DNA of 64,000 nucleotides from Vulcanimicrobiota bacterium (GTDB lineage: Bacteria; Vulcanimicrobiota; Vulcanimicrobiia; Vulcanimicrobiales; Vulcanimicrobiaceae). The stretch's first letter is position 1; each line of letters starts with the position of its first letter. Positions 20,004 through 62,622 of the stretch are shown here, piece after piece. The DNA lies in contig CAWHWQ010000005.1 of assembly GCA_963833095.1 (NCBI GenBank), positions 64,001-128,000 on the forward strand. The letters run 5' to 3'. The notes under the pieces are model-generated. The model was not told where the DNA came from and made no database searches. It saw only the letters and a list, made by a program, of their open reading frames with translations. A program made the translations under genes and the position numbers.

Positions 20004-20384
20004 ATGGGACGCAAGCCGAGCGCGACCCTCACCGACGCCGAGCTGCGCATCATGCGCGTGCTCTGGTCGCGAGGCGAGTCGACCAATATGGAGATCGTCA
20101 GCGCGATCGTCGAGCCGCCGCTCGCGCGCAATACGGTGATGACGACGCTTGGGGTGCTCGAGCGCAAGGGATACGTCAAGCATCGGACCGACGGACGCAC
20201 CTTCATTTATAGCACCCTCGTCCCGGAAGAGCGCGCTCGCGGAACGGCGCTGGAAAGCGTGCTGCGCCGCTTCTTCGACGGTTCGGCCGAACAGCTCGTC
20301 GTCAAACTTCTCGATGCCGAATACATCTCGAGCGCCGATCGCAAGCGAATTCAAAAGCTCGTCGATGAGGCGGTCGACGAGTGA
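20004..20384 (+). CDS. BlaI/MecI/CopY-family repressor
   Basis: LTDAELRIMRVLW, TVMTTLGVLERKGYV, GRTFIY and RFFDGS; start moved to ATG 20004. Confidence 0.93.
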   Translation: MGRKPSATLTDAELRIMRVLWSRGESTNMEIVSAIVEPPLARNTVMTTLGVLERKGYVKHRTDGRTFIYSTLVPEERARGTALESVLRRFFDGSAEQLVVKLLDAEYISSADRKRIQKLVDEAVDE

Positions 20385-24035: not shown

Positions 24036-24728
24036 CTAAACACCGAGAAATTCGAGCAGCTCGCGCTCGCGGCTGCGCACTTCCTCGCTTCCCAGCGTCT
24101 GCGTCACCCGACCATTCACGACGATATGGTGCCGATCGGCGACGCCGGCCGCGAATCGCACGTTTTGCTCGACCAGCAGCACCGAAAGCCCCGCGGCCTT
24201 CATCTCGAGAATCACTTCGCCGATACGCTCGACCAGCACCGGTGCAAGTCCCTCGGTCGGCTCGTCCAGCAGGATCGTCTGCGCTCCCGAGCGCAGCGCG
24301 CGCGCGATTGCCAGCATCTGCTGCTCGCCCCCCGAGAGCGTCGTTCCGACCGCGGAAGCACGTTCGCGCAGATTGGGAAACGTCTCGAAGATCCGCTCGG
24401 TGCTCCAGCCTCCCGGCGCGATAACCGGCGCGAAGAGCAGGTTCTCGCGCACGCTTAGCGTCGAAAAAATGCCCCGCTCTTCGGGAACGTAGGCGATGCC
24501 GCGGTGCGCGATACGATCCGACGAGAGCCCCGAGATCGTTTCACCGCTAAACTCGATGGTTCCCGATCGCGGCTCGACGATGCCCATGATCGCGCGCAGC
24601 GTCGTCGTTTTCCCGACGCCGTTTCTTCCGATCAAGGTCGCGACCTCGCCGTCGCGCACGTCGAACGACATGCCGTGGAGAATGTGCGCCTCATCGTAGT
24701 ACGCCTGCACGTCGCGTAATACCAACAT
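24036..24728 (-). CDS. ABC ATP-binding protein (LivF family)
   Basis: GRNGVGKT, LSGGEQQ and LDEPTEGL. Confidence 0.93.
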   Translation of the reverse strand: MLVLRDVQAYYDEAHILHGMSFDVRDGEVATLIGRNGVGKTTTLRAIMGIVEPRSGTIEFSGETISGLSSDRIAHRGIAYVPEERGIFSTLSVRENLLFAPVIAPGGWSTERIFETFPNLRERASAVGTTLSGGEQQMLAIARALRSGAQTILLDEPTEGLAPVLVERIGEVILEMKAAGLSVLLVEQNVRFAAGVADRHHIVVNGRVTQTLGSEEVRSRERELLEFLGV

Positions 24729-24732
24729 GGCT

Positions 24733-25494
24733 TTAGTGCTTGGCTCCCCCGAGATAGGCTTCGATCACGCGCTCGTCGGCACGCACTTCGTCGTAACGGC
24801 CTTCGGCGAGAACTTTGCCGCGCGCGAGGACCGTGACCCGATCGCACAGATGCTCGACGACGCGAAGATTGTGTTCCACCAGCACAACGGTCCGCGCGCG
24901 CGCGATCTCGCGGATAAGCGCGATGGTTCGCTCGACGTCCTCGGCCCCCATGCCCGCAGTCGGCTCATCCAGCAGCAACACCGATGGTTCTTGCGAAACG
25001 GCAATCGCCAGCTCGAGCGCGCGCTTTTTCCCATACGCGAGATTGGCCGCCGGCGTGTCGCACTCGTCTTCGATTCCGACGGACGCCAGCGTGCGACGCG
25101 CCGGCTCATCGAACACCGCGGCAGCGCGCGCCGTTTCGAGAAGCCTCCACGAAAGATTCGAGTGCGATTGAAGCGCGATCTTCACGTTTTCGAGCGCGGT
25201 GGAATGAGGAAAGATGCTGCTGATCTGAAAGCTTCGCACCACGCCCATGCGCGCAATCGATGCGGGATCGAGCTTGGTCGTATCCTCGTTGCCGATCGTC
25301 ACGCGTCCGGATGTCGCCTGCACGAAGCCCGAAAGAACGCCGAGCAGCGTGCTCTTTCCGGCGCCGTTGGGACCAATAACGGCGTGAATCGATCCTTCAC
25401 GCACACCGAAGCTGAGTCCGTCGAGCGCGCGAAACCCCGAATAGGACTTGACGATGTCATGCGCGCGAAGGCGCGGCTGCACAGACGCCTGCAT
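24733..25494 (-). CDS. ABC ATP-binding protein (LivG family)
   Basis: GPNGAGKS, RSFQI, LAYGKKR and LDEPTAGM. Confidence 0.93.
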   Translation of the reverse strand: MQASVQPRLRAHDIVKSYSGFRALDGLSFGVREGSIHAVIGPNGAGKSTLLGVLSGFVQATSGRVTIGNEDTTKLDPASIARMGVVRSFQISSIFPHSTALENVKIALQSHSNLSWRLLETARAAAVFDEPARRTLASVGIEDECDTPAANLAYGKKRALELAIAVSQEPSVLLLDEPTAGMGAEDVERTIALIREIARARTVVLVEHNLRVVEHLCDRVTVLARGKVLAEGRYDEVRADERVIEAYLGGAKH

Positions 25495-25532: not shown

Positions 25533-25578
25533 TACCCCCGAAATGGTGTATTCGCAAGCGGTCGCGCCCTGCCAGACT
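25533..25578 (+). promoter_or_regulatory. 18-bp regulator site copy 1 plus extended -10
   Basis: TACCCCCGAAATGGTGTA (25533-25550); hexamer CAGACT 22 nt later, preceded by TGC. Confidence 0.65.
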
Positions 25579-25598
25579 CAAGGTCGGAGGTACTCGTA

Positions 25599-26381
25599 TT
25601 GAGGTTGGCGGGAAAAGTCGCCCTGATCACCGGTGCTGCAAGCGGTATCGGACTCGAAATCGCTCGGACGATGGCGCGTGAGGGCGCCGCCGTCGCGATT
25701 GCCGATATTTCGCTCGACGGAGCGCAGGCCGCCGTAGCGCAGATTGAGCGCGAGCACGGCCGCGCCATCGCCGTCGACATGGATGTGACCGACGAAGAGC
25801 AGGTCGCTTCGGGCGTGAACCGGACGACCGCCGCGTTCGGCGGCCTCGATATTGTGGTAAGCAACGCCGGCATCCAGCATATCGCGCCCATTCACGAACT
25901 TGCCTATGCGGATTGGCGACGAGTCGTCCGCATCCACCTCGACGCGGCGTTCCTGGTGACTCGGGCGGCCCTCCAGCATATGTACGCGCGGCACAAAGGC
26001 GGATCGATCATCTACATGGGATCGGTACATTCTAAGGAAGCGTCGCCCCTCAAAGCCCCGTATGTGGCGGCCAAGCACGGTCTGCTTGGTCTAGCTCGCA
26101 CCGTCGCCAAAGAGGGCGCGCAATTCGGGGTGCGCTCGAACGTCGTCTGCCCAGGCTTCGTGCGGACCCCGTTGGTCGAGCGCCAGATTCCCGAGCAAGC
26201 GGCGGCCCTGGGCATTTCAGAGGCTGACGTCATTAAGAACGTGATGCTTAAAGAAACCGTCGACGGCGAGTTCACCACGACGGTAGACGTAGCAGAGACA
26301 ACAGTATTCTTAGCAGCATTTCCCAGCAATGCGCTGACCGGACAATCGATTGTGGTCAGCCACGGTTGGAACATGGAGTAA
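25599..26381 (+). CDS. bdhA: 3-hydroxybutyrate dehydrogenase (SDR)
   Basis: [35 protein letters not shown] and [17 protein letters not shown] start after GGAGG. Confidence 0.92.
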
Positions 26382-26426
26382 TACCTCCCTTAGGGTGTAG
26401 ATAGGAAAACGCGTTTGTGGGATAAT
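26382..26426 (+). promoter_or_regulatory. 18-bp regulator site copy 2 plus extended -10
   Basis: TACCTCCCTTAGGGTGTA (26382-26399); hexamer GATAAT 21 nt later, preceded by TGG. Confidence 0.65.
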
Positions 26427-26501
26427 ATTCCTTAACCAGAGGGGCCGGAAGCATAAGCGCTCGGCCACCTTTCGTGATGATGATGATTGATTGGAGGCAC
26501 A

Positions 26502-27551
26502 ATGAATCGCACTCAAGTTGCGATTGCTAGCCTCGTGCTAGCAGCGTTCGCAATTCTTATACCGGCGACCGCGTCGGCAGCCCAGCAACGCTGGACTCTG
26601 GATATTAGTCCGGTGTACTTCCAGGATAATACCGGCGACTCACAAGCCCCGCCGCTGGGGCCGAATTACACGCCGCTCTATTGCCCGAACGGTTCGTCGG
26701 CGTGTCCGTCGTACGGCTATCCGCAGACCACGCGAAACTTTCGGCTCGACTACGACCTGACGTACCAGCTCAATCGCCGGTGGAGCCTGAATTACTCCCA
26801 CGCCAACTTCGACTTCACCCTCGGCCGTCTCTCGACGGTTCCGACGGGGCTCCCCGTGGGGTACCCGCAAAATTTCTCGGCGCTCACGGGCAGCATCAAC
26901 GACATAACCGATCAAGGGACGGTATCCTACGCTGCAGGCCACGGACTTACGCTCACCGCGTTCTACGCCAGCCACCAGCGCTCGCAGATCACTGCGACGA
27001 ACCTCTACGGCCCGTGCTACTTCAACTCGGTCCAATGCGTCGGCAATACGTCAAACCCGTCGAGCATTAACTCGAATTACTGGGGCGTAACTGGAACGTA
27101 TTCGTTTGGACCGCACACCGCGTATGAGCCGCCGATGTTCAAGGTCGGCGCACAGATCAACTACTATCCGCGCCCGTCAGCCGGTAACTGTGGCACCGCG
27201 CTTGCGCAGGCGGCCTGCGGCAGCAACGGCATCAACGGTTATGTCGGAAGCGGCACGACCTATCCGTGGTCGTTCACCTTCTTCCCGTTCTCGAATTCGC
27301 ATCTGCTGCAACCGGGCACGATCCCGTTCATCGGATACGAAGCTGCCAGCGTGTGGTTCCATGGTGAGAACACGCCGGAAACCTACAACGTCGTCGATGC
27401 GGGCATCGTACAGATTCTCCCGCACGGGCTTTCGCTGAGCTACACCTACTTCAAGCTCAACGGCCGCCAATCGAGCGACACGGTTCCCCCGCCGGATACG
27501 ATCCGCTCGGCAACCAGCATCGTCAAACTGACCTACGCACTCCACTTCTAA
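26502..27551 (+). CDS. Secreted protein, probable outer-membrane beta-barrel of unknown family
   Basis: Signal peptide, alternating aromatic strands, three Cys pairs and C-terminal VKLTYALHF; GGAGG RBS. Confidence 0.7.
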   Translation: MNRTQVAIASLVLAAFAILIPATASAAQQRWTLDISPVYFQDNTGDSQAPPLGPNYTPLYCPNGSSACPSYGYPQTTRNFRLDYDLTYQLNRRWSLNYSHANFDFTLGRLSTVPTGLPVGYPQNFSALTGSINDITDQGTVSYAAGHGLTLTAFYASHQRSQITATNLYGPCYFNSVQCVGNTSNPSSINSNYWGVTGTYSFGPHTAYEPPMFKVGAQINYYPRPSAGNCGTALAQAACGSNGINGYVGSGTTYPWSFTFFPFSNSHLLQPGTIPFIGYEAASVWFHGENTPETYNVVDAGIVQILPHGLSLSYTYFKLNGRQSSDTVPPPDTIRSATSIVKLTYALHF

Positions 27552-27572
27552 CCGAGAAGCGGATACATGAAA

Positions 27573-27614
27573 GAAGCCCCGATCGTTCGATCGGGGCTTC
27601 TCTTCTTTTGTTTT
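27573..27614 (+). terminator. Intrinsic terminator
   Basis: GAAGCCCCGATCG-TT-CGATCGGGGCTTC followed by a T-rich tail. Confidence 0.85.
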
Positions 27615-27779
27615 GTCATCCCGAGCGGAGGCACGTAGCGCCGAAGTCGAGGGACCGTCTTACGTCCTTGCCTTCGACATTCGGCCTCACTAAGCGCCTC
27701 GCGTCTCGCACAAAGCTACATTGTCAGGGTGCTCGCCGCTCGGCTAACCCGTTCAGCCGAACGTCGAAGGCAAGGACGT
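27614..27779. repeat. REP/MITE-like palindromic element(s)
   Basis: TGTCATCCCGAGCGGAG...GAAGTCGAGGGAC, then 24-bp inverted repeats (23/24 match) at 27662-27685 and 27756-27779. Confidence 0.7.
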
Positions 27780-27787
27780 GCAAGGGT

Positions 27788-28411
27788 TTACAGAAGTCCC
27801 GCTTCCCTAGCTCGCGATATCGCTTCGACCCGATTGCGCGCATCGAGTTTTTGCATGAGATTGCGCAGATACGCTTTGACCGTATTCGGACTGAGGTGCA
27901 TCGCTTGCGCAATTTCGTGATTCGTTTCACCGATCGCAACGCGCCGCAGCACGTCATATTCTCTGCGCCCAACCATGGTACGCGCTCGATTGGGAATCGA
28001 ATGCCCTAGGCCGGCCGTTTCTTCACCGCGCATCGCGCCCACGATGACTGCGGCGAGATCGGTGCGCGCGGCGTCCTTGGCGACGATTCCACAGGCGCCG
28101 GCCTCGAGCGCAGCGCAGACCGCGGGATGATCCGGATACGCCGTAAAGATCACGATGCGCGCGTCGGGCACGGCGCGACGCAGCATGCCGATGAGTTCGG
28201 GTGCGAGCATATCGGGGAGTCGCAGATCGCATAAGATGACGTGCGGCGCCGCCGATTCCACCAGCTCGACCGCGGCCTTGCCGCTGGAGGCATAGCCAAC
28301 GAGTTCGATCCGCCGGTTCGACGTCGCCAGCAACGCCACACCGTCGCGAACGACCGGATGATCGTCGATGACGAGAAGGCGAATCGGCGCGAGCATGGTC
28401 GAGGTATTCAA
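27788..28411 (-). CDS. NarL/LuxR-family response regulator
   Basis: IDDHPVVRDG, CDLRLPD and HTH TNHEIAQAMHLSPNTVK; start is TTG 28411 or ATG 28396. Confidence 0.93.
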   Translation of the reverse strand: MNTSTMLAPIRLLVIDDHPVVRDGVALLATSNRRIELVGYASSGKAAVELVESAAPHVILCDLRLPDMLAPELIGMLRRAVPDARIVIFTAYPDHPAVCAALEAGACGIVAKDAARTDLAAVIVGAMRGEETAGLGHSIPNRARTMVGRREYDVLRRVAIGETNHEIAQAMHLSPNTVKAYLRNLMQKLDARNRVEAISRAREAGLL

Positions 28412-29565
28412 TTTCGCACCCAAACGCGGAAGGTCGTGCCGCCCTCGGGATTGTCGGTGAGCAGCAAGCTGCCGCCGACGCTCGCCAGCGCATGTTCGAT
28501 CGCGTCGAGTCCAAAGCCGTGGTCGCGTTCGGCGTTATGCACGAGTTCGCCGCCGGTCCCAACGCCATCGTCGGTAATTGCAAGCGTCACGCCGTTGCCT
28601 TGCGAGCCGACGGTCACGACGACATTGCCGGCTTGCGCGTGTTTTTCGATATTGAGCAGCCCCTCTTTGGCCGCGGCGATCAGCACGCGAACGGCCGAAT
28701 CACCCAGACGCGGGAGCACGTCGAGCATCACCAGATTCGCTTTGATGGCCGTGCGCACTTCGAAATGATGGATTGCGGCCTGGAGCGCCGAACCGAGCGC
28801 CAGCTGGTCAGCCGGCGTGGCCAGCGCGCGCAACGAATCGCGCAGCATCGTTGCCGCCTCCTTGGCCTGGCTCTCGATCGTGCGCAGGCGCGCGCGCAGA
28901 TCGCCGTCGAGAACGGTATCGTTCACGCTGCGAACACCCGCAGTAATGGCAAAGAGCATCGCGCCGACGGTATCGTGCAGGTCGAGCGCCATGCGCTGGC
29001 GCTCCTCTTGAATCGCGGCGGCAGAGCGCCGCTGCGCTTGCGCGGCGACGTTGAGCGCTTGTGCTGTGCGCTCGGCGACTGTTTCGATGAGCGTTGCCGC
29101 GCCGTCGCCGAAGGTCGTGCCGGCGCGCGACCCGCCCATGAGGACGCCTTCAACCATCCCGTCGTACTGAATCGGCGTGCCGATGATACCTTGCAGGCGT
29201 TCGGCGACGATCGTGCGATCGTAGTGGTGCGTGATATCGCGAGAGGCGAGGTACTGATCGACGCAGACCGTCTTTCCGAGCGCGAAGACTTTGCCGCCAA
29301 GTCCCCTGCCTCGTTGGAGTACCATATCTTGGATCGCAGAGAGCATCTGCGCGCCGTAGCGAATAACGACGGTGTCTTCATCTGTTCGCTCGGCGAACCA
29401 AGCGCAGTTGAAGCCAACCTCCTCAGTGAGGATGCGTGTCGCCTCGTGCAAGATCGCGTCCCGGTCGAGAACCGAGACCAATCGAGCGACTTCACGTTCC
29501 AAATGAGCGAGTTCGTCCGCTGCCAACCGTATCCGGGAGCGGAAACCATGTGTAACTCGGTCCAT
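28408..29565 (-). CDS. Cytoplasmic GAF-domain histidine kinase (HisKA_3)
   Basis: GRGLGGKV GAF, ERQRMALDLHD H-box, EGLLNIEKHA, DDGVG and GFGL; no TM; start moved to ATG 29565. Confidence 0.92.
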   Translation of the reverse strand: MDRVTHGFRSRIRLAADELAHLEREVARLVSVLDRDAILHEATRILTEEVGFNCAWFAERTDEDTVVIRYGAQMLSAIQDMVLQRGRGLGGKVFALGKTVCVDQYLASRDITHHYDRTIVAERLQGIIGTPIQYDGMVEGVLMGGSRAGTTFGDGAATLIETVAERTAQALNVAAQAQRRSAAAIQEERQRMALDLHDTVGAMLFAITAGVRSVNDTVLDGDLRARLRTIESQAKEAATMLRDSLRALATPADQLALGSALQAAIHHFEVRTAIKANLVMLDVLPRLGDSAVRVLIAAAKEGLLNIEKHAQAGNVVVTVGSQGNGVTLAITDDGVGTGGELVHNAERDHGFGLDAIEHALASVGGSLLLTDNPEGGTTFRVWVRN

Positions 29566-29597
29566 CAAGCTTTCATCCGGCTTCGCCCGGCCAAAAC

Positions 29598-29643
29598 TAT
29601 GTCCTTTTGGGTGTAATCGCAATGGCGCTAGGTTTGCGATACT
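29598..29643 (+). promoter_or_regulatory. 18-bp regulator site copy 3 plus extended -10
   Basis: TATGTCCTTTTGGGTGTA (29598-29615); hexamer GATACT 22 nt later, preceded by TGC. Confidence 0.6.
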
Positions 29644-29690: not shown

Positions 29691-30878
29691 ATGATTTCGC
29701 ATCGCATCACGCGGGCCGCAGCGTGCTGCGCGCTCGTGCTTGCGCTTGGAGGCGCAAGCCTTGCGCCGGTCGCTGCCGCCGGGAGCGACGTCAAGGTCGC
29801 TTTGGTCACGTCGAAAACCGGGCTGCTCGGCGCCTACGGGAACGAGTTTCTCCGCGGGTTCACGGTTGGATTGAACTACGCCACGCATGGAACCGGCGTC
29901 GCCGGCGGCCACAAAATCGTGGTCTCCGATTACGATGACGCGGGCGATGCCGCCAAGGCAATCGCGACGACCAAAGATCTGATCGGCCAGGGCTACAAGA
30001 TCATCGCAGGCACCGTCTGGTCAGGTATCGCCGTGCAGATCGCGCCGCTCGCGCAGGAGAACAACATTCTCTATATGCCGCTTGCGGCCACCGACGCGCT
30101 TACCGGCATCAATCGAAACACCGTGCGCGTCGGACGCGAAAGCATCCAGGATCTCCTGACGGTCGGCACGATGCTCGGCACGAACCTACGCGGCAAACGC
30201 ATCTTGGTGATCGCACAAGACTCGGCATTCGGTCAAGCCAACGTCGCGGGCGCTCGTTTGGTGCTCGGCGGTGAAGGCGCAACCGTCAATGGTCTGCTCG
30301 TGCCGCTCTCGGCCAACGACTTCACGCCCTTCGCGCAGAAAGTCCTCGACGCCAAGCCCGATCTGCTCTTTGTGGCCTGGGCCGGCGCAAGCGGCGTGGC
30401 GCTGATGCAGTCGCTGCAAGCTGCGGGCGTTCTTGATAACACGCCCGTCGCGACCGGCTTGGATCAACGTGCCGGCTTCCCGCTCTTCGCCAAAGAAACG
30501 AAGATCCAGTACATCGCGCTGTATGTGCCCGAGTGCTCGAAGTCGGCTCCCAACGAGTTCCTGATCAAAGCCGACCAAAAAGATTTGGGCAAGCTGCCGG
30601 AAGATTTTGAGAATGACGGTTTCGTGGCGGCTGAAATGATCGTTCATGCGGTAGCCTCCGCCAACGGTGACGACGTGCCGAAGATGATTTCGTCACTCGA
30701 GGGCTACAAGTTCACCGGGCCAAAGGGACCGGAGCAAATTCGTGCAGCCGACCACGCGCTGCTCGAGCCGATGTTCATCGCAAAGCTCGAGACCAAAGGC
30801 TCGAACGTCTACCCCGTGTGCTTGCGGACGCTTCCACCGAGCGCGGTCGCGCCGCCCGTACGCCCATTTAAACAGTAA
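29691..30878 (+). CDS. ABC substrate-binding protein (LivJ-like)
   Basis: Signal peptide, AQDSAFG, DFTPFA and GPKG...IRAADH. Confidence 0.9.
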   Translation: MISHRITRAAACCALVLALGGASLAPVAAAGSDVKVALVTSKTGLLGAYGNEFLRGFTVGLNYATHGTGVAGGHKIVVSDYDDAGDAAKAIATTKDLIGQGYKIIAGTVWSGIAVQIAPLAQENNILYMPLAATDALTGINRNTVRVGRESIQDLLTVGTMLGTNLRGKRILVIAQDSAFGQANVAGARLVLGGEGATVNGLLVPLSANDFTPFAQKVLDAKPDLLFVAWAGASGVALMQSLQAAGVLDNTPVATGLDQRAGFPLFAKETKIQYIALYVPECSKSAPNEFLIKADQKDLGKLPEDFENDGFVAAEMIVHAVASANGDDVPKMISSLEGYKFTGPKGPEQIRAADHALLEPMFIAKLETKGSNVYPVCLRTLPPSAVAPPVRPFKQ

Positions 30879-30885
30879 AGGAAAC

Positions 30886-31644
30886 GTGGAGCAAACCTGC
30901 GCTATTCGGACTGACGCCTTAAGCTATCGAATCGGCGGCGTCTCGATCATCAACGACGTATCACTCGAGGTACGTGACGGCGAATTTCTCGTCGTGATCG
31001 GACCGAATGGCGCAGGGAAAACCACCCTGGTCAACCTGCTCTCCGGTGTCGCGCGTCCAACGCAGGGCGCCATCTACCTCTACGATTCCGATGTCACCCA
31101 CGCGGCGCCTTATGAGCGCGCTCGGCGCGGACTGGGACGTACCTTTCAAACGTCGAGCGTCTTTTTGTCGCTGAGCACCCTTGAAAATGTGCGACTCGCC
31201 GCGCAAGCGCATCTCGGCGGATCGGGCGCGGTATGGCGCTTAGCCGATTCGAATCGCGTAGCCCTAGAACAAGCTCGCGCTGCGCTCGAATCCGTGGGCT
31301 TGACGCAACGCATGCGCGTCCCGGCTGCGGCGCTCTCGCATGGTGAGAAGCGCAAACTCGATCTGGCAATTCTCTTGTGCCTCGAACCGCGTGTGATCGT
31401 GCTCGACGAGCCGACCGCCGGCATGGCCGTCGAAGACGTCCCCGAAATTCTTTCACTCGTTTCGTCAATGCACCGCGAACGCAACGCGACCGTGATCATG
31501 GTCGAGCATCGTCTCGATCTGGTTTCGCAGCTCGCCGATCGCATGGCCGTGATGCATCATGGATCGCTCTTGGCGATCGATACGCCGCAGCGAGTCATCG
31601 CTAACGAAACGGTTCAAACCGCTTACCTTGGAGACCCCTTGTGA
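30886..31644 (+). CDS. ABC ATP-binding protein (LivG family)
   Basis: GPNGAGKT, LSHGEKR and LDEPTAGM; GTG start after AAGGA. Confidence 0.92.
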   Translation: MEQTCAIRTDALSYRIGGVSIINDVSLEVRDGEFLVVIGPNGAGKTTLVNLLSGVARPTQGAIYLYDSDVTHAAPYERARRGLGRTFQTSSVFLSLSTLENVRLAAQAHLGGSGAVWRLADSNRVALEQARAALESVGLTQRMRVPAAALSHGEKRKLDLAILLCLEPRVIVLDEPTAGMAVEDVPEILSLVSSMHRERNATVIMVEHRLDLVSQLADRMAVMHHGSLLAIDTPQRVIANETVQTAYLGDPL

Positions 31645-32366
31645 CGTCGCCCCTTCTGGACGTGCGCGATCTCGACGTGCGCATCGGCCAGTCGCACATT
31701 CTGCATCACATTTCATTCACGGTTCGCAGCGGCGGCATCACCGGTCTACTCGGTCGCAACGGCGTCGGAAAAACCACGACGCTACGCGGCATCCTCGGGC
31801 TTGCCGATCGCACCGGCAGCATCACGATGGAAGGCGCGCCGATCGGCACGCTGCCTACGCACGAAATCGTGCAGCGCGGCATCGCCTACGTTCCCGAAGA
31901 CCGCGACGTCTTCGCCGGGCTCACCGTCGAGGAAAACCTGCGATTGGCGGAACGCCCCGGCAACGAGTTGCGCTACGACCTCGTGTACGATCTTTTTCCG
32001 GAGCTGCGCACGCGCGCAAAGCAGCACGCCGGCACGCTCTCGGGAGGGCAGCAACAGATGGTTGCGATTGCGCGCGCACTGCTCAACGGCGGCAATCGCC
32101 TTTTGCTGGTTGACGAGCCGACCAAAGGACTCGCACCGCTGGTTGTTCGCAATGTCGTCGATGCGCTCAAACGCGCCGCGGAGGTCGTGACGATTCTTCT
32201 GGTAGAACAAAATTTGAGTGTTGCGCACAAGCTCGCGCACGATGCGATCGTGCTCGACCACGGCACCGTCGGCTACGTCGGCACGGTCGACGAGCTGATG
32301 AGCGATCCGGCGCTTGCGCGCCGCCATCTCGGCGTTGCGGCCGCGGGGGCAGCGCACGAGCCGTGA
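31641..32366 (+). CDS. ABC ATP-binding protein (LivF family)
   Basis: GRNGVGKT, LSGGQQQ and VDEPTKGL. Confidence 0.93.
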   Translation: MTSPLLDVRDLDVRIGQSHILHHISFTVRSGGITGLLGRNGVGKTTTLRGILGLADRTGSITMEGAPIGTLPTHEIVQRGIAYVPEDRDVFAGLTVEENLRLAERPGNELRYDLVYDLFPELRTRAKQHAGTLSGGQQQMVAIARALLNGGNRLLLVDEPTKGLAPLVVRNVVDALKRAAEVVTILLVEQNLSVAHKLAHDAIVLDHGTVGYVGTVDELMSDPALARRHLGVAAAGAAHEP

Positions 32367-33238
32367 GCACCGTCATTCTCTTGCTGTTGACCGGCCTTGG
32401 ACTCGGCGCACTCTATTTCTTGATCGCGTCCGGACTTTCACTCATTTGGGGTTTGATGCGCGTCTTGAATTTCGCGCACGGCGCCCTCTTTACCATCGCC
32501 GCGTACGTCGCGTGGTCCCTGACCGCGCGGCTGCAAGGCGCAGATCCACTCTGGGCATGGCTCGCTGGAATCGTCATCGCCGTCGTCGTCGGCGGCGTCG
32601 CGGCTTTGCTGCTCGAAGTCTTTCTGATCCGTCCGCTCTATGCGCGCCCGATCGGGCAAGTTCTCGTGACCGTCGGCGTTGCGCTCGCCGCAGGGGCGCT
32701 GATCGAAGGCATTTACGGCAGCGACCCCAAGCAGATGGTGCTGCCTAGCTGGATGTCCGCATCGTCGGCAATCTTTGGCGAGCCGGTTCCGAACACGCGT
32801 CTGCTCTTGATTGCCATCGCGCTTGTCGTGCTCGCGGCACTGCTGCTGTTTTTGCGGCGCACACGCTATGGACTCGTCATTCGTGCCGGCGTCGAAAACC
32901 GAGCAATGGTCAGCGCGCTCGGCATTAATGTCGAGCGAGCCTTCACGCTGGTGTTTACGATCGGGGGCATGGCCGCGGGACTTGCAGGCTTTCTTTCGGG
33001 AACGTATTTCGGATATATCGATCCGACACGCGGTACGTCGATGCTCATCTTCGCTTTTATCGTGGTCGTGATCGGCGGCCTCGGTTCGGTAACGGGTTCG
33101 GCGATCGCCGCCGCCGTCGTCGCGATCGTTCAACAGTTCCTCAATTTCTACGCGGCGCCCGGTATCGGCGACTTCTCCGTCGTCATCCTGCTCGCGGCGG
33201 CGCTGCTCTTGCGGCCGCGCTCGGGTGAAACCACATGA
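32363..33238 (+). CDS. ABC permease (LivH family)
   Basis: LNFAHG, TRYGLVIRA and VVIGGLGS. Confidence 0.92.
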   Translation: MSTVILLLLTGLGLGALYFLIASGLSLIWGLMRVLNFAHGALFTIAAYVAWSLTARLQGADPLWAWLAGIVIAVVVGGVAALLLEVFLIRPLYARPIGQVLVTVGVALAAGALIEGIYGSDPKQMVLPSWMSASSAIFGEPVPNTRLLLIAIALVVLAALLLFLRRTRYGLVIRAGVENRAMVSALGINVERAFTLVFTIGGMAAGLAGFLSGTYFGYIDPTRGTSMLIFAFIVVVIGGLGSVTGSAIAAAVVAIVQQFLNFYAAPGIGDFSVVILLAAALLLRPRSGETT

Positions 33239-34278
33239 AGCCGCTCGTGCGTATCGGCGCGCTTGTTGCCGGCATCGCGCTCTTGGCGGCCGCACCGTGG
33301 ATCGGCATTCCGATTCCGCCGCTTTTCTCCGAATCCCTCAACGCTCCGGGATCGTTGAACCTGCTCGCGCTGTGCTTCGTGTTTGGCGCGCTCGCGCTCT
33401 CGTACGACATCATCTTCGGATTTGCCGGATTGCTTTCGTTCGGACATGCGCTCTATTTTGCTACCGGCGTCTATGTGGGCGCAATCGCACTGACCCATTG
33501 GCACCTCGGGTTGTTACCGACGATCGGTGTCACGCTGGTGGTTTCTCTCGTGCTCCCGCTGATCGTCGGTGCCGTCTGCCTGCGCGTCCGCGACATTCAA
33601 TTTGCAATGGTGACACTTGCCTTCGCGCAAGCCGGATCGATTCTCGTGATGCAGAATCCCTTTGGGCTCACCGGCGGCGAGGAGGGCCTCGCGCTTGGGG
33701 TACATGCGCTGCCGGCATTCCTCGTCGGCGTCGAGAACACGCGCAATCTCTACTGGATCGCGCTTGGCTTACTGATCGCCGTCTCCGCTATCGGATGGTG
33801 GGCCGTCAATTCCGCCCCGGGTCGGGTATGGCAAGCGATTCGCGAGAACGAACGCCGCGTGGAGGTGATCGGCCTCAACCCGTATCTCTATAAACTCGGC
33901 GCCTTCGTACTCTCCTCGTTTCTTGCATCCGCAGCGGGGTTCGTCTACTTGCTGATCGAGGGAAGCGCGAGCCCCGACGTCACGACCGCGAGCTTTACGC
34001 TGGTGCTGCTGGTCATGGTCGTGCTCGGCGGCGTAGGAACACTGTGGGGAGCAGTGCTTGGCGGCATCGTCTACGAATATCTTGATTTTCGCCTTGTCGT
34101 GCTCTCAAACGCAACCGGATTACAATCGCTCCCGGCGTTCCTGCGCATCCCGCTCTCGGAGCCCCTCTTCATCCTCGGCGTCCTCTTTATCATCCTGGTC
34201 CTCTTCGTTCCCGGTGGACTCGCCGGCGCGCTGCGCCGGCTCAACCCTGCCTTTCTCGCTTCATCAGGGAGTCATTAG
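33235..34278 (+). CDS. ABC permease (LivM family)
   Basis: GLLSFGH, FAMVTLA, TGGEEG and AIRENE. Confidence 0.92.
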   Translation: MKPLVRIGALVAGIALLAAAPWIGIPIPPLFSESLNAPGSLNLLALCFVFGALALSYDIIFGFAGLLSFGHALYFATGVYVGAIALTHWHLGLLPTIGVTLVVSLVLPLIVGAVCLRVRDIQFAMVTLAFAQAGSILVMQNPFGLTGGEEGLALGVHALPAFLVGVENTRNLYWIALGLLIAVSAIGWWAVNSAPGRVWQAIRENERRVEVIGLNPYLYKLGAFVLSSFLASAAGFVYLLIEGSASPDVTTASFTLVLLVMVVLGGVGTLWGAVLGGIVYEYLDFRLVVLSNATGLQSLPAFLRIPLSEPLFILGVLFIILVLFVPGGLAGALRRLNPAFLASSGSH

Positions 34279-34279
34279 C

Positions 34280-35494
34280 ATGCGACTATCACGAATCGTC
34301 TCTGCCGTATGTGCGGCTATTCTGCTCTGCGCACCGTTATCGGCCGCACCCGCAACCGCGGCCGATACAGCGCCCATCCACATCGCGGTCATCACCGATA
34401 TGAGCGGCGTTTACGCCTCGCTCTCAGGTCAAGGAGCGGTCGAAGCCACCAAAATGGCGGTCGAAGATTTCGGCGGCAAAGTCCTTGGCCGGCAAGTTAT
34501 CGTCGACACCGTCGATCACCAGAATTCCGGGCCGACCGCCGAAGCCAAGGCCCGTGAAGAGTTCGACAACGGCGCCGAACTCGCGCTCGACATGACCAAC
34601 TCCGCTACCGCACTCGCCGTTGCTTCGGTAGCGAAAGACAAGCACAAGCTCGCGATCGTCACCGGCGGCGGCACGTCGGCGCTAACCGGCGCGAGCTGCA
34701 ACAAATACACCTATCATTACGCCTACGATACCTACGCACTGGCGCACTCCGAAGGCGTCGCGGTCGCCAAAAGCGGCTTGAAGACTTGGTACGGCATCGT
34801 GCCCGACTACGCATTCGGGAAGTCGATGCTCAGTGATTTCACCGATGCGATCAAGCCGTACGGCGCGACTTTTGTGCACGCCGATACGATGCCGCTCGGC
34901 ACGACCGATTTCTCCTCCTACATGCTCGCAGCGAAAAACGCGCACCCGCAAGTCCTGGCCCTGCTCAACGCCGGCGCCGATACCGTCAATAGCATGAAGG
35001 CAGCCAAAGAATTCGGCCTCGACAAGCAGATGAAGATCGTCGTTGGACTCTTCTTCCTGCCACAGGTGGACACCGATCCTTCACTCTGGGCCGGCGCGAA
35101 AGTTGCTGACTCATGGTATTGGGATCAAACGCCAGAAGCACGCAAGTGGGCCGACCGCTGGTCGGCGCGCATGAACGGTGCGCGTCCCGGATCGATTCAA
35201 GCCGCAGATTATTCGGCGGCAATGCAGTGGCTCAAGGCCGTCCAGGCGGTCGGGTCGGTTGACGCCGATAAAGTCGTGGCCTATCTGGACGGACGCAAGT
35301 TCAGCGACTTCTACGCGCAGAACGCTGAGTTTCGCGCTCGCGACCACCGCGTGGTCCACGACATGTACGTCTACGACATCCTTCCGCAGTCGCAAGTCAA
35401 AGAGAAGGACGCCTGGTACAAGCTCGTCGACACGGTCCCCGGCAGCCAAGCCTTCCGGCCGGCGTCTCAGTCGACGTGCGACAAGACCTGGTAA
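34280..35494 (+). CDS. Second ABC substrate-binding protein (LivJ-like)
   Basis: Signal peptide, TDMSGVY, AVEDFGG, PDYAFG and DFSSY; start moved to ATG 34280. Confidence 0.92.
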   Translation: MRLSRIVSAVCAAILLCAPLSAAPATAADTAPIHIAVITDMSGVYASLSGQGAVEATKMAVEDFGGKVLGRQVIVDTVDHQNSGPTAEAKAREEFDNGAELALDMTNSATALAVASVAKDKHKLAIVTGGGTSALTGASCNKYTYHYAYDTYALAHSEGVAVAKSGLKTWYGIVPDYAFGKSMLSDFTDAIKPYGATFVHADTMPLGTTDFSSYMLAAKNAHPQVLALLNAGADTVNSMKAAKEFGLDKQMKIVVGLFFLPQVDTDPSLWAGAKVADSWYWDQTPEARKWADRWSARMNGARPGSIQAADYSAAMQWLKAVQAVGSVDADKVVAYLDGRKFSDFYAQNAEFRARDHRVVHDMYVYDILPQSQVKEKDAWYKLVDTVPGSQAFRPASQSTCDKTW

Positions 35495-35506
35495 TCCGAT
35501 AGTCTC

Positions 35507-36382
35507 ATGAGCGCGGACTATCTCGCGTCCCAGCTCTTCAACGGCCTCGCAAGCGGCGCGTTCTACGCGCTGCTTGCGCTGGGCCTTTCGGTGATCTTCG
35601 GCACCTTGCGGATCATCAATTTTGCGCATGGGGCGATGTATATGCTCGGTGCGTTCGCGACGTACTACGGCGCGCAGTATTTGCATCTCAACTTCTTCGT
35701 CGCGCTTATCGCCGCGCCGTTGGTCGTTGGTCTGCTCGGGATGCTCTTCGAGGTTCTTTTCTTGCGCCGGCTCCAGCGCTTGGATCCGGTCTACGGTCTG
35801 CTCTTTACCTTCGCCACGACGCTGGTCGTCGTCAACCTCATGCGCTTACTCGCCGGCGCGATGGGATCGCCGTACAATATACCTGACGCCCTTTCCGGCG
35901 TAACCAATCTCGGCTTCACGCTCTATCCGACCTACAAACTCTTTGTGATCGTCCTGTCCGTCATCGTCTGCACGCTCGTGTGGTGGTTCGTCGAGCGGAG
36001 TTTGCTCGGGGCGCGCATCCGGGCGGCCACCGAGAACCCGTTGCTCGTGCGCGCGCTCGGCATCGACACGCCACGGCTTATCACGCTGACCTTCGGTCTG
36101 GGCGTCGCGATAGCGGCGCTTGCCGGCGTGCTCGCTGCGCCGACGACGAATGTCTATCCGTCGATGGGCGACGACATCATCATCTACACCTTCGCGATCG
36201 TCGTCATCGGCGGTCTCGGCTCGATTACCGGTTCGATCGCAATGGGCTTTGTGCTCGGCGTCCTTCAAACGCTGGGCGCGGTCTTTTATCCGCCGATCGC
36301 CACCACCCTGATCTTTATCGTCATGGTCATCGTCATCGCGCTGCGGCCGAGTGGCCTCTTCGGAAGGCCGGAGTCGAGTTGA
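35507..36382 (+). CDS. Second ABC permease (LivH family)
   Basis: INFAHG, GARIRA and VVIGGLGS. Confidence 0.92.
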   Translation: MSADYLASQLFNGLASGAFYALLALGLSVIFGTLRIINFAHGAMYMLGAFATYYGAQYLHLNFFVALIAAPLVVGLLGMLFEVLFLRRLQRLDPVYGLLFTFATTLVVVNLMRLLAGAMGSPYNIPDALSGVTNLGFTLYPTYKLFVIVLSVIVCTLVWWFVERSLLGARIRAATENPLLVRALGIDTPRLITLTFGLGVAIAALAGVLAAPTTNVYPSMGDDIIIYTFAIVVIGGLGSITGSIAMGFVLGVLQTLGAVFYPPIATTLIFIVMVIVIALRPSGLFGRPESS

Positions 36383-37317
36383 TGGATCGGCGCCTGTGGA
36401 TCCTTCTCGGGATCGTCGGCCTGCTCGCGCTCGCATTGCCCAAGCTGATCTATCCCGTGGTCGCCATCGACATTCTGTGCTTTGCGCTCTTTGCCGTGGC
36501 GCTCGACTTGCTCTTTGGTTTTGCCGGATTGCTCTCGTTTGGGCAAGCGATGTTTTGGGGCGGCTCGGGCTATGTGGTGGCGATTCTCGTGCAAGACCTT
36601 CACCTCGACGGCGCCGTTGCGCTCGGAGCGGGAGCGCTGTATGCAGCCGTTCTGGCAACGCTGGTGGGCATGCTGGTCGTGCGGCGCAGCGGCATCTACT
36701 TCGCAATGATTACGCTTGCGATCGCGCAGATCGAGTACTTCGTGGCCGTCCAACTCAAAGATCTCACCGGCGGCGAGAACGGTCTGCCGATGGATTCACG
36801 TGGGACCTTCTTCGGCGTGCACGTCTCGAACGATACGGCGTTTTATTTCGTCACGCTCGCTATCATCGCGCTGTGCGTATGGTTCGTCATTCGCGTCGTC
36901 GGATCGCCGTTCGGCACAGTTCTCCGGGCGATTCGCCAGAACGAAGCGCGCACAATCGCGCTGGGCTATCGGGTGAACCGCTTCAAGCTCGCGACATTCG
37001 TCCTTTCGGGCGTTCTCTGCGGACTCGCCGGAGGGCTCTATGCCCTGGGCAATCGGCTCGCCGGGCTCGAGATGATCGATTGGCATACGTCGGGCGCTGT
37101 CGTCATGATGGCGATTCTTGGCGGCAGCGGAACGATCGTCGGGCCGATCATCGGAGCAGCCATCTATCAGATCATCGAATACTTCGTTTCAAAAACGGCG
37201 ATCGGTCAAGAGACCGACCTCGTGCTGGGATTGGTCTTTGCCGTTTGCATACTCGCGTTTCGGCAAGGGATCGCCGGAGGAGTGCTCTCAATACCATGGC
37301 GCAAGACTTCGACCTAG
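36382..37317 (+). CDS. Second ABC permease (LivM family)
   Basis: GLLSFGQ, YFAMITLA, TGGENG and AIRQNE; ATG overlaps the upstream stop. Confidence 0.92.
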   Translation: MDRRLWILLGIVGLLALALPKLIYPVVAIDILCFALFAVALDLLFGFAGLLSFGQAMFWGGSGYVVAILVQDLHLDGAVALGAGALYAAVLATLVGMLVVRRSGIYFAMITLAIAQIEYFVAVQLKDLTGGENGLPMDSRGTFFGVHVSNDTAFYFVTLAIIALCVWFVIRVVGSPFGTVLRAIRQNEARTIALGYRVNRFKLATFVLSGVLCGLAGGLYALGNRLAGLEMIDWHTSGAVVMMAILGGSGTIVGPIIGAAIYQIIEYFVSKTAIGQETDLVLGLVFAVCILAFRQGIAGGVLSIPWRKTST

Positions 37318-38132
37318 AACTGCTGCGCGGGCGGCTGCGCGCGCGGCGCTACGGAAAGCCTTCAGGCGTACCGGCGCTCTGCATTCCCGGTCTTTCGTCC
37401 AATTCGAGCGTCTTCACGCGGCTCGGTGAACGATTCGAACGTGACGGACGCAGTTTAATTGCATTCGATTTGCGTGGGCGCGGCTGGAGCGACATCACCG
37501 AAAAAGGGACCTACGGCTGGGAAAACCATGCGCGCGACATTCTCGAAGCTGCGCAAGCCATGGGCATCGAGCAGTTCGACTACATCGGGCACTCGATGGG
37601 CGCATTCATTGGGATGACGGCGACGTCGATCGATCGCGGGAAGCACATTCGCCGCTTGGTGCTCATCGACGGGCTCGGCGTGCCCTCGCAGACGGCGCTG
37701 ACCGCGATCATCGCCGGCCTTGCGCGACTCAAGGGCACGTTCGCGACCGCGGATGAGTACGTCGCCGCCGTGCGCGAGATGGGCCTAGCAGCTCCGTGGA
37801 ACGATCTCTGGGAGCAGCATTACCGCTACGATTTGATTACCGAGAACGGGAACGTCCGGCCACGCACCGACGCAGCAGCGGTCGGCGAAGATGCAGTCTA
37901 CGGCTCAACGCAAGACCCTCGCGCCGTGTGGCCATTGCTCACGATTCCCACGCTCCTGCTGCGCGCGACCGTACCGCTGGGCGGCCCCGACGGCTTCGTC
38001 GTCACTCAAGCGGACTACGACGATTTCCTCGCGGCGGTCCCCAGTGCCACGGGCGTCGAGATCCCGGCGAACCATTTCGGCATCATGGCAGCGCAGGAAA
38101 CGCTGGACGAGATCGAACGATTCTTGCAATGA
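37296..38132 (+). CDS. Alpha/beta hydrolase (esterase/lactonase-like) 1
   Basis: DLRGRG, GHSMG nucleophile and C-terminal NH; ATG 37296 after GGAGGAG. Confidence 0.9.
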   Translation: MAQDFDLELLRGRLRARRYGKPSGVPALCIPGLSSNSSVFTRLGERFERDGRSLIAFDLRGRGWSDITEKGTYGWENHARDILEAAQAMGIEQFDYIGHSMGAFIGMTATSIDRGKHIRRLVLIDGLGVPSQTALTAIIAGLARLKGTFATADEYVAAVREMGLAAPWNDLWEQHYRYDLITENGNVRPRTDAAAVGEDAVYGSTQDPRAVWPLLTIPTLLLRATVPLGGPDGFVVTQADYDDFLAAVPSATGVEIPANHFGIMAAQETLDEIERFLQ

Positions 38133-38971
38133 CCATGGCTGAGGGCTTCTTTCTTCCGTTATCATCGGGGCGCATCCGCGTGGAGCGCTTTGGACCACCA
38201 TCGGCGCGGGCAGTCATCTGCGTGCACGGCATCTCATCGAACGCGCGCGTTTTCACGCCGATTCGCGACGCCCTTGCAATGCAAGGCCGTCAAGTCATCG
38301 CGCTGGATTTGCGCGGCCGTGGACTCAGCGAAAAAAGCGAAGCCGGCACGTACGGATGGTTGCGCCATGCCCGCGACGTCTTCGAAGTCGCCGAACGCCT
38401 AAAGCTAGAGGAATTCGATCTGGTCGGCCATTCGATGGGAGCCTTCGTCGGCATGAACGCCGTCGCCATCGACAAGCGCAAGCAAATCGGCAAGATCGTG
38501 CTCATCGACGGCCTTGGCCTTCCGAGCGCCACGGCCGCCGCTGCGCTAGCGCGAAACGCAACGCGATTGAACTGGATCTACCGCAACGCGGACGACTATG
38601 TGAAAGCCGTGCAGAGCTTGGGGCTGGCTTCGCCCTGGACCGATCATTGGGAGCGGCACTACCGCTACGAGGTCGAATCGACGGAGCGCGGCGTGCGCGC
38701 GCGCACCAAATTCGGCGCGGTCCTCGAGGATGCAGCGTACGCGGCGACGCATTCGCCGAGCACCTTGTGGGGATCGCTTTGCATTCCGGTCCTGCTCTTG
38801 CGCGCGTCGCGGCCGCTTGCCGCTCCGAACGGATTCGTCGTCACACGACACGACCTCTCCGCCTTTAAGCGATCGACACCCGCCGCGATCGTGCAGGAAA
38901 TCGACGCCAATCACTTTGGAATCGTCATGCACGACGATGCACTTTCCGCGATCAGAGGGTTCTTATGCTAA
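38129..38971 (+). CDS. Alpha/beta hydrolase (esterase/lactonase-like) 2
   Basis: VHGISS, DLRGRG, GHSMG and DANHFG; collinear paralog of the upstream gene. Confidence 0.9.
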   Translation: MTMAEGFFLPLSSGRIRVERFGPPSARAVICVHGISSNARVFTPIRDALAMQGRQVIALDLRGRGLSEKSEAGTYGWLRHARDVFEVAERLKLEEFDLVGHSMGAFVGMNAVAIDKRKQIGKIVLIDGLGLPSATAAAALARNATRLNWIYRNADDYVKAVQSLGLASPWTDHWERHYRYEVESTERGVRARTKFGAVLEDAAYAATHSPSTLWGSLCIPVLLLRASRPLAAPNGFVVTRHDLSAFKRSTPAAIVQEIDANHFGIVMHDDALSAIRGFLC

Positions 38972-40587
38972 GTACGATGCCGGATCGGCCACTCTCGATC
39001 CATGCGATCCTCGAACATGCCGCGCGCGCGCATCCTCATAAGGGCATCGTGGCGCGCGACGGCCCGGACATCGTTCGCATCGACTACGCGACCTTTGCCA
39101 AGCGCGTGGCCAAACTCGCCCATGCGCTCGACGAACTTGGCGTGCGGCCCGGCGACCGCGTCGCGTCGTTTGCCTGGAACGGGCATCGCCACATGGAGCT
39201 GTACTACGCAGTGCCGATGATCGGCGCCGTACTCCACACGGTAAACATTCGGCTCTTCCCGGATCAGGTCGCGTTCATTCTGGATCACGCCGAGGATCGC
39301 GTCGTCTTTTTCGACGCCTCGCTGGCCAAAGCGGTCCAAGCTGCCCGCGCTCTCCAGCCCCAAGCGCAACGCGTGTTCGTCGCTATGGGCGCGCTGACCG
39401 AACCCTTCGAAGGTGCGCTCGACTACGAGACGCTCGTCGCGACGAAACCCGAGCACTACGAATGGCCGCAGGTCGACGAACGTTCGGCTGCGCTCTTATG
39501 CTATACGTCGGCGACGACCGGCGATCCCAAGGGCGTCCTCTTCTCGCATCGTTCGACCTATATTCACGCACTTGCCAGCGCCCTGCCCGATTACCTCGGA
39601 GCCCGCGAGCGCGACCGTATTCTTCCGATCGTGCCGATGTTTCACGTCAACGCCTGGGGCTTTCCGTTCATCGCCCCGATGGTCGGCGCCGATCTGATCA
39701 TGCCGATGGACCGTCTCGACGCACCGGGCGTGATCGAACTGTGCAAGAACGAACGCGTGACGCTGTCCGCCGGTGTGCCGACCGTGTGGTTGGCCGTGCG
39801 CGACGCGCTGGTTGCGAACAACGATCGCTTGCCCGACCTCAAACGCGTCGTCATCGGCGGCTCGGCGATGCCGCGTTCGCTCTACGACGCCCTCGAGCAG
39901 CTCGGCATCGAGGGCGTTCACGCCTGGGGAATGACCGAGATGTCGCCGATCGGCACGGTCAACTCGCCTGCATCGGAACTCGCGAACAACCCGGAGCGCC
40001 AGCACGAGGAGCGGTACAAAGCCGGGCGCTTTGCGCCGATTGTCCAATGGCGATTGATTGACGAGCACGGCAACGACGTGGCCGCCGACGGCGTCTCCCG
40101 CGGCGAACTGCTCGTACGCGGGTATGCGGTCACGACGAAATATTACAACAATGAAAGCGCGACCGCGGCGGCGTTCACGCCTGACGGGTGGTTTCACACC
40201 GGCGACGTCTGCACGGTCGACGAGTTCGGATACCTCGACATCGTCGATCGCACCAAAGATTTCATCAAGTCGGGCGGTGAGTGGATCTCATCGGTCGAGG
40301 TGGAGAACACGATCATGGGCCATGCCGCCGTACGCGAAGCGTGCGTGTTCGGCCTTGCGCACCCCAAGTGGCAGGAGCGTCCGGTCGCGGCCGTCGTGAT
40401 CCGCGAAGGGCACGAGCTCGACGAGGACACCTTGCGCGCGTGGCTCGCGCAACATTTGGCGAGTTGGCAAATCCCGGATCGCGTACTCTTCATCGATGCG
40501 ATTCCCCGCACGGGTGTCGGCAAATTTCTCAAGCGTGAATTGCGCACACAATATGCGACGCTGCTCACCCAAGGCGAGCGCGTTTGA
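38965..40587 (+). CDS. Fatty-acid--CoA ligase (AlkK/DmdB-like)
   Basis: YTSATTGDPKG, PMFHVNAWG, AWGMTE, FHTGD and IKSGGEWISS. Confidence 0.93.
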   Translation: MLSTMPDRPLSIHAILEHAARAHPHKGIVARDGPDIVRIDYATFAKRVAKLAHALDELGVRPGDRVASFAWNGHRHMELYYAVPMIGAVLHTVNIRLFPDQVAFILDHAEDRVVFFDASLAKAVQAARALQPQAQRVFVAMGALTEPFEGALDYETLVATKPEHYEWPQVDERSAALLCYTSATTGDPKGVLFSHRSTYIHALASALPDYLGARERDRILPIVPMFHVNAWGFPFIAPMVGADLIMPMDRLDAPGVIELCKNERVTLSAGVPTVWLAVRDALVANNDRLPDLKRVVIGGSAMPRSLYDALEQLGIEGVHAWGMTEMSPIGTVNSPASELANNPERQHEERYKAGRFAPIVQWRLIDEHGNDVAADGVSRGELLVRGYAVTTKYYNNESATAAAFTPDGWFHTGDVCTVDEFGYLDIVDRTKDFIKSGGEWISSVEVENTIMGHAAVREACVFGLAHPKWQERPVAAVVIREGHELDEDTLRAWLAQHLASWQIPDRVLFIDAIPRTGVGKFLKRELRTQYATLLTQGERV

Positions 40588-41042: not shown

Positions 41043-41054
41043 CCGATATACTTT

Positions 41055-62614: not shown

Positions 62615-62622
62615 ATCTGGCT

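Follow-up and report, generated by a model that had tools for sequence, protein, structure and literature searches.

Within a 2.8 Mb, 81% complete genome of a soil bacterium (G000), whose closest named relatives are mostly titled Eremiobacteraeota or Vulcanimicrobiota, the stretch of DNA analysed here (the window, G000:C5:64001-128000) spans 64,000 nucleotides. It carries a block of genes in the order two divergent ATP-binding cassette (ABC) ATPases, bdhA, a barrel-like gene, a response regulator, a sensor kinase and a 13-gene operon, a synteny kept, up to contig ends, in the 13 same-genus genomes that have the kinase. An 18-bp palindrome stands before bdhA, the barrel-like gene and the operon, and is a conserved operator located 21-22 nt upstream of extended -10 boxes. 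From its distribution among related and distant genomes we hypothesize that the NarL-type regulator encoded next to it is its probable binder and would serve as a class II activator. The regulon so controlled is predicted to degrade extracellular poly-3-hydroxybutyrate (PHB), a storage polyester of microbes, and to take up and oxidise 3-hydroxybutyrate (3HB). The features concerned are the following (window coordinates).

25533..25550, no strand assigned: operator 1, TACCCCCGAAATGGTGTA, centre at about -43.5 of the bdhA promoter
25570..25578, + strand: extended -10, TGC-CAGACT (hexamer 25573-78, spacer 22), predicted start at about 25585
25599..26381, + strand: bdhA, 3-hydroxybutyrate dehydrogenase, over the PRK13394 and TIGR01963 cut-offs
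26382..26399, no strand assigned: operator 2, TACCTCCCTTAGGGTGTA, centre at about -42.5, beginning directly after the bdhA stop codon
26418..26426, + strand: extended -10, TGG-GATAAT (hexamer 26421-26, spacer 21), predicted start at about 26433
26502..27551, + strand: signal-peptide protein, predicted outer-membrane beta-barrel, no match in Pfam and NCBIfam profile searches
27788..28411, - strand: NarL/FixJ-family response regulator, receiver (REC) plus GerE helix-turn-helix (HTH), recognition helix LSPNTVKAYLRN
28408..29565, - strand: soluble sensor kinase, GAF, HisKA_3 and HATPase, GAF region RamA/NreA-like
29598..29615, no strand assigned: operator 3, TATGTCCTTTTGGGTGTA, centre at about -43.5, lying 32 nt before the ATG of the divergent kinase gene
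29635..29643, + strand: extended -10, TGC-GATACT (hexamer 29638-43, spacer 22), predicted start at about 29650
29691..42059, + strand: 13-gene operon, gene gaps -22 to +12 nt

The three operators and their promoters

A preliminary description of the window had claimed one motif with a fixed promoter geometry, and the sequence bears this out: the 18-mers at 25533, 26382 and 29598 have 2, 2 and 3 mismatches to TACACCC-N4-GGGTGTA, each is followed by a TGn-extended -10 hexamer (CAGACT, GATAAT and GATACT, at spacers of 22, 21 and 22 nt), sites 1 and 3 do lie in divergent gaps, and the close spacing of the 13 genes confirms the operon. The check proposed there, a search of orthologous intergenic regions, finds the sites kept in 12/12, 12/12 and 13/13 same-genus loci, with a column conservation of 0.94, 0.85 and 1.00 in the sites versus 0.56, 0.66 and 0.68 in the spacers. 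All 37 orthologous sites have a -10 hexamer at spacer 21 or 22, and 34 of them the TGn. In G015 another gene takes the divergent position and operator 1 still accompanies bdhA, operator 2 is a perfect consensus palindrome in the G001 and G015 orthologues, and operator 3 is nearly invariant in 13/13 genus genomes and in G174 of another genus. The -10 assignments are independently supported, because start codons fall 6-7 nt behind the box in several orthologues: the binding-protein gene of the operon has its ATG 6-7 nt past the box, and is hence leaderless, in 5 of 13 orthologues, bdhA of G015 starts with a GTG 6 nt past it, and one type of depolymerase gene (that on contig C7, see below) likewise starts 6-7 nt past it.

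Plain mismatch counting was rejected as proof, being uninformative alone: G000 has 36 positions with at most three mismatches to the consensus versus 23 in a Markov-4 simulation, and the consensus was derived after the fact. With leave-one-promoter-out matrices, the held-out site ranks 2nd, 3rd and 11th of 2,805,996 positions, and composite scores for motif plus -10 box are 37.9, 34.4 and 31.2, followed by a gap to 22.3. A refined composite scan of G000, with a matrix that incorporated orthologous depolymerase sites, gave six matches (five promoters and one false match in coding sequence) and none in the reversed genome. The false match, C1:12672, was discarded as lying inside a coding frame, presumably rpsK, and other high position weight matrix (PWM) matches that have no -10 box, such as window position 36997 within a permease gene, were discarded as well. 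The aldehyde dehydrogenase gene, singled out earlier for a scan, drops out as a target, with no site and a best PWM score of 0.6 in 62000-63300.

Operator 3 may also autorepress the kinase promoter, an idea that we neither adopt nor drop: a TAnnnT reads leftward from the edge of the site, which speaks for it, but the A-rich left flank recurs at non-divergent targets.

The kinase and regulator pair

The regulator exceeds the cut-offs for a receiver (PF00072, 71.8 > 30.2) and for a GerE/LuxR HTH (PF00196, 67.9 > 23.5), shows the receiver motifs DD, D, T and K in alignment, and matches the structure of E. coli NarL (PDB 1a04, E 1.6e-25). The kinase, whose gene overlaps that of the regulator by 4 nt, exceeds those for HisKA_3 (PF07730, 42.1 > 24) and HATPase (PF02518, 35.8 > 26.4); its GAF domain is of the GAF_2 type, its phospho-accepting histidine, H198, is invariant in 29/29 sequences, no transmembrane segment is found (maximum KD19 1.33), and its AF2 model has a pLDDT of 83 and a pTM of 0.55. 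The pair is not NarXL in the strict sense (NarL family 114.5 < 250, NarX 69.3 < 578, and no transmembrane segment in the kinase), and scores for MadRS and MctRS stay below their cut-offs (regulator 111.2/300 and 104.8/300; kinase 46.3/500 and 74.7/700). The MadRS literature was put aside as a lead; the papers found concern a same-named Enterococcus system.

Co-occurrence of the operator with the pair

The assignment of the motif to the NarL-type regulator at 27788-28411, made in the preliminary description, draws support from phylogenetic profiling, gene position and distant homologues, all of which point to this protein as the likely binder. The survey covered 301 Eremiobacterota genomes, with 10 candidates per genome scored in the regulator search and the kinase searched in subsets; two unpublished genomes (G048 and G059) provide only non-matching or weakly matching rows in the tallies. 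The regulator is present (E <= 1e-40) in 15/301 genomes, and three more show the kinase (G306, G110 and G227, with cut or partial matches). A strict motif-plus-promoter pattern matches 13/301 genomes, all among these 18 pair-bearing ones, with no match in the other 288 and none in the reversed control; 12 of the 13 have the regulator, and in the remaining one, G306, the kinase lies where a contig ends. A relaxed pattern, in which a V excluded GATAAT and GATACT boxes, so that per-genome counts are low and only presence was used, is positive in 14/18 genus genomes, the four negatives being exactly those that lack the pair, and in 5/41 genomes of genus g31, all within the 12 that are kinase-positive.

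Outside the genus, a site (PWM 16-23) adjoins the pair in 7/7 other-genus loci, also where the flanks differ and only kinase and regulator are common, and close metagenome loci show it in 22/22 cases (control 0). Three same-genus genomes (G003, G011 and G014) have no kinase and keep bdhA at 72-75% identity, with no site upstream of it (best score 0-4.8). We take the adjacent regulator as the likely binder because the motif tracks the pair across genera and is missing before bdhA in these three pair-less genomes.

Binding by another factor, whether the BlaI/MecI repressor (20004-20384), the AraC protein (42859-43788) or another LuxR-type protein, is highly improbable. BlaI/CopY proteins do bind TACA...TGTA-type palindromes, and the genome has four other LuxR-type HTH proteins, but BlaI and AraC homologues each occur in 1/48 related loci, a lack of synteny on which both were rejected, and the motif follows the kinase and regulator not only across genera but also across phyla. 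Moreover, a recognition helix of the form N-T-V/I-K-x-Y is shared by the regulator and those of distant homologues, and the recognition helices of the other LuxR-type proteins of G000 differ.

Distant homologues and promoter geometry

Among 58 distant metagenome loci (36-42% kinase identity), several of them near-duplicates, 26 carry a site of the family type, in each locus accompanied by nAnnnT at spacer 21/22, and the control reached threshold in 4/63. Homologues on plasmids of Rhodococcus and Mycobacterium, with 33-35% identity in the kinase, adjoin operons for group 6 monooxygenases or CoA transferases and carry TACCTCC-N4-GGAGGTA or CATCTCC-N4-GGAGATG, mostly with a -10-like hexamer 21/22 nt away. 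For smoA of Rhodococcus BCP1, the part of the report available gives a start mapped by primer extension to an A 49 bp before the ATG, a -10 box GATGGT and a -35 box TAGTCA that is overlain by a conserved palindrome (PMC4428276). These boxes match the Rhodococcus ZPP homologue exactly, and TACCTCCGATCGGAGGTA, mapped on ZPP, spans -52 to -35 with its centre at -43.5. The spacer of 21/22 and this published start (PMC4428276) thus agree with the centre near -43 predicted earlier, at -42.5/-43.5, and the geometry is that of class II: a centre near -42, over the -35 position, with the spacer fixed at 21/22 in 37/37 sites. A review, likewise available in part, grades the evidence for the smo regulator as 'sequence analysis only' (PMC8784404).

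The same position over the -35 region would suit a repressor operator freed on induction, an explanation that we consider very unlikely. Extended -10 promoters can function without a -35 box. What is termed the -35 box of the BCP1 smoA promoter lies beneath the palindrome (PMC4428276). However, the spacer is fixed at 21/22 nt across two phyla, as expected for polymerase contact, no TTGACA-like box is found at -35 in the three window promoters, and the -10 boxes are often weak (CAGACT, CACGAT).

In six distant loci (L186, L190, L200, L203, L208 and L218) an operator lies upstream of the kinase gene, co-directional with it and at spacer 21/22, which suggests positive autoregulation of the kinase there. 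Ligases, CoA transferases and monooxygenases are the genes that distant homologues flank.

Regulon members outside the window

The regulon of three promoters proposed in the preliminary description stands for all three but is incomplete, as two more members, both PHB depolymerase genes, lie on other contigs (C1:715708-717111 and C7:62897-63994). Their products have lipoprotein-like signal peptides and exceed the NF050059 cut-off for extracellular short-chain-length polyhydroxyalkanoate depolymerases of catalytic type 2 (312.6 and 307.8 > 280); a relative, L068, scores 339.2 and matches PDB 2d80 at E 1e-63. The sites before these phaZ genes, at G000:C1:717159 and G000:C7:62845, are weaker, with a spacer of 22 and some orthologues near consensus, and are kept in 12/12 and 9/10 genus copies, G000 included. 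The two depolymerase targets point to the function of the regulon, in which bdhA likewise satisfies the NCBIfam cut-offs (PRK13394, 378.4 > 340; PRK12429, 348.4 > 258; TIGR01963, 316.2 > 307.05).

Outside the genus, G166 and G306 gave distal matches with no prior knowledge of the targets. These stand before the genes for a type-2 extracellular PHB depolymerase and a barrel homologue, and further distal matches there precede a binding protein and a methyl-accepting chemotaxis protein (MCP). It was a search of G000 with this depolymerase that led to the two genes on C1 and C7. One site in G166 precedes a bdhA-like short-chain dehydrogenase/reductase (PRK12429, 287 > 258), and in G288 and G253 a depolymerase gene stands directly behind the site beside the pair. 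Homologues of the barrel (24-33% identity) follow the motif in other genera; the barrel protein of the window is a candidate porin for 3HB oligomers. Its Atlas features lie at 0.95 to the CymA/OmpG clusters with a recognition of 2167, which is under the 2300 mark and serves as a lead only. The composite scan gave no site near phaC, which is present in G000, and an acetoacetyl-CoA synthetase over the cut-off was not found in G000, at 81% completeness.

The 13-gene operon encodes two Liv/HAAT-type binding proteins with permeases and ATPases, two alpha/beta hydrolases, an acyl-CoA ligase, a MaoC hydratase and an acyl-CoA thioesterase; no solved relative was informative about what the binding proteins and hydrolases bind. 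Such content might instead serve a wider ester and fatty-acid scavenging regulon, under the same regulator and site, in which the PHB genes would make up just a part and which would respond to short-chain acids, esters or acyl-CoAs in general. The ligase is of the long-chain type (PRK06187, 595 > 476), the MaoC protein, the thioesterase and the unassigned hydrolases would fit, as would a tannase-like secreted hydrolase among the other targets, G235 has the pair and a ligase with no depolymerase match, and the neighbours of distant homologues include ligases, CoA transferases and monooxygenases. We nevertheless regard this explanation as unlikely, for in two genera bdhA and depolymerase genes each follow the motif, at loci of their own, and both are specific to 3HB or PHB by curated cut-offs.

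Three further observations concern possible relatives of these targets. In genus g31 (L067:7303, L098:1285), the ABC operon is followed by a gene for an MCP chemoreceptor, which is preceded by a separate operator and whose product is a candidate receptor for 3HB/PHB chemotaxis. At L159:4171, L204:2936 and G110:C7:10349 a strong operator precedes the gene for the tannase-like hydrolase, a secreted protein of 520 aa with no assigned family that was not found in G000; it is a candidate oligomer hydrolase. At L128, L130 and L131, upstream of a third depolymerase type, a different palindrome (ACCCGTCGACGGGT type) stands before the depolymerase genes of genomes without the pair and is perhaps the site of another regulator.

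A model of PHB scavenging and its strength

The scheme that we propose for G000 is as follows. Secreted lipoprotein-type depolymerases would release 3HB and its oligomers, for which the barrel and the Liv-type ABC systems would be the entry route; the soluble GAF kinase would detect a product in the cytoplasm (3HB or an oligomer, acetoacetate or a CoA ester) and phosphorylate the regulator; and a regulator dimer seated on the 7-4-7 palindrome at -42.5/-43.5, in place of a -35 box, would recruit polymerase to five TGn/-10 promoters, namely those of bdhA, the barrel gene, the ABC operon and the two phaZ genes. As a mode of action, this would be the textbook class II activation of the NarL family. 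Binding of the operator by the phosphorylated regulator is very likely from comparative evidence, and, given binding, activation of the class II type can be expected with similarly high confidence; the joint statement that also names 3HB or a near metabolite as inducer is likely, though less firmly so.

Several points weigh against the proposed regulon. The strict pattern misses five pair-bearing genomes (G235, G253, G268, G110 and G227), of which the first three have PWM sites scoring 16-22 beside the pair and G110 is caught by the relaxed pattern. Patterns and matrices were built from pair-bearing genomes, which makes the positive half of the co-occurrence evidence in part circular, and the related genomes counted are not independent. 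As to PHB, 19/36 depolymerase-bearing genomes show no pair, G235 has pair and sites with no NF050059 match, G008 has no depolymerase match, and the depolymerase paralogues L127, L131 and L132, in pair-bearing genomes, have no clear site. The ligase, MaoC protein, thioesterase, hydrolases and binding proteins received no PHB-specific family call. Finally, the inducer may be broader than 3HB, because distant relatives have genes for alkane monooxygenases and acyl-CoA ligases as their targets.

A more specific version of the PHB regulon is possible, though we lean against it: the pair could serve specifically to sense (R)-3-hydroxybutyrate or its oligomers in the cytoplasm, with a GAF domain like that of RamA set in a kinase relay, for harvesting necromass PHB in acid-soil and peat Eremiobacterota. 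The harvesting line would then tentatively comprise the depolymerases, a new family of oligomer porins, the Liv-type importers, bdhA and, in one genus, the chemoreceptor. If this is true, the family-wide 7-4-7 operator would name the regulator of group 6 alkane/dioxane monooxygenases, and regulons would become readable for many orphan GAF-kinase pairs.

Relation to known systems

NarL of E. coli binds TACYNMT heptamers in a 7-2-7 arrangement and gives class II activation near -42. Like the pair described here, NarXL combines a REC plus GerE regulator with a HisKA_3 kinase, but its sensor is a membrane protein rather than soluble, and the equation of the present motif with NarL-type heptamers, made in the preliminary description, gives way to a family-specific 7-4-7 palindrome. 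RamA of Corynebacterium (NF041673, acetate metabolism regulator) is a one-component regulator, whereas two genes are found here. The kinase N-terminus matches profile positions 8-207 and the regulator HTH positions 216-279 of 280, with scores (59.7 and 51.3) far under the cut-off of 500, so that the pair is no member of the family. Because the two segments together cover most of the RamA profile, the pair looks like a RamA split by an inserted kinase/receiver relay.

The closest system is the hisK/luxR-like pair of smoABCD, which encodes a group 6 soluble di-iron monooxygenase (Rhodococcus BCP1, Mycolicibacterium chubuense NBB4; PMC4428276, PMC8784404, PMC11057499; parts available). The ZPP copy has a soluble GAF kinase (35% identity) and a NarL-type regulator (40%), and the smo promoter (Psmo) has the 18-bp 7-4-7 palindrome TACCTCC-N4-GGAGGTA 21 nt before a TGn/-10 box, centred at -43.5. 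In contrast, the smo targets are alkane monooxygenase genes, the inducers are C1-C7 alkanes, and the kinase and regulator genes are convergent. The available parts of this literature note the Psmo palindrome and do not link it to a regulator by experiment. MnoSR of Mycobacterium smegmatis is also a two-component activator of small-carbon catabolism with a palindromic site bound in electrophoretic mobility shift assays, but its probe, of CACCGG...CCGGTG type, is by eye unlike the operator; MnoR, with one perfect site in its genome, was thus rejected as a source of the operator's identity (PMC11303327, available in part).

A literature search, with subscription papers mostly outside its reach, gave no report of a two-component regulator of extracellular PHB depolymerases, none with these motif strings and none linking the GAF-kinase family to PHB scavenging; titles and abstract starts on Eremiobacterota and hydroxybutyrate gave none on PHB use. 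For a widespread, uncharacterised family of soluble GAF-kinase two-component systems, the finding supplies an operator, a regulon and a probable substrate. Through the shared geometry, the Psmo palindrome, noted long ago, becomes testable as well. In the available part of its description, cultured Vulcanimicrobium has many Liv transporters, shows no growth on the branched-chain amino acids tested and grows only on yeast extract, with 3HB and PHB absent from the substrates listed (PMC9758169); enrichment on 3HB or PHB is therefore a direct and cheap culturing idea for the phylum. A 3HB-responsive sensor and promoter pair would also be useful as a biosensor for bioplastic degradation.

Neighbouring genes and other features

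Two further features belong to the block.

24036..25494, - strand: divergent ABC ATPase pair, probably the ATPases of the second transporter
26443..26466, + strand: conserved 5'-leader hairpin of the barrel mRNA, stem kept in 8/8 sequences

Operator 1 may also control the divergent ATPases, which are candidate targets only. In the barrel leader, one base pair of the hairpin is altered on both sides (compensatory) in 3/8 sequences, and a further, weak helix might mask the ribosome site. The first ABC transporter of the operon (29691-34278) has about 65-73% identity in G002 and G009, where flanking genes exceed 90%, and 84-88% in G016 and G017, a pattern suggesting that its alleles have been swapped repeatedly inside a fixed locus.

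Elsewhere in the window, a BlaI/MecI repressor and a BlaR-type M56 partner lie at 20004-21592, where synteny with relatives is not kept, and 18635-20002 encodes another protein with a signal peptide and no Pfam match; it probably forms an outer-membrane barrel, and its gene follows a further operon with a Liv-type ABC system and an acyl-CoA dehydrogenase. An aerobic carbon monoxide dehydrogenase cluster lies at 47081-50801, with a large subunit over the TIGR02416 cut-off (1183 > 991).

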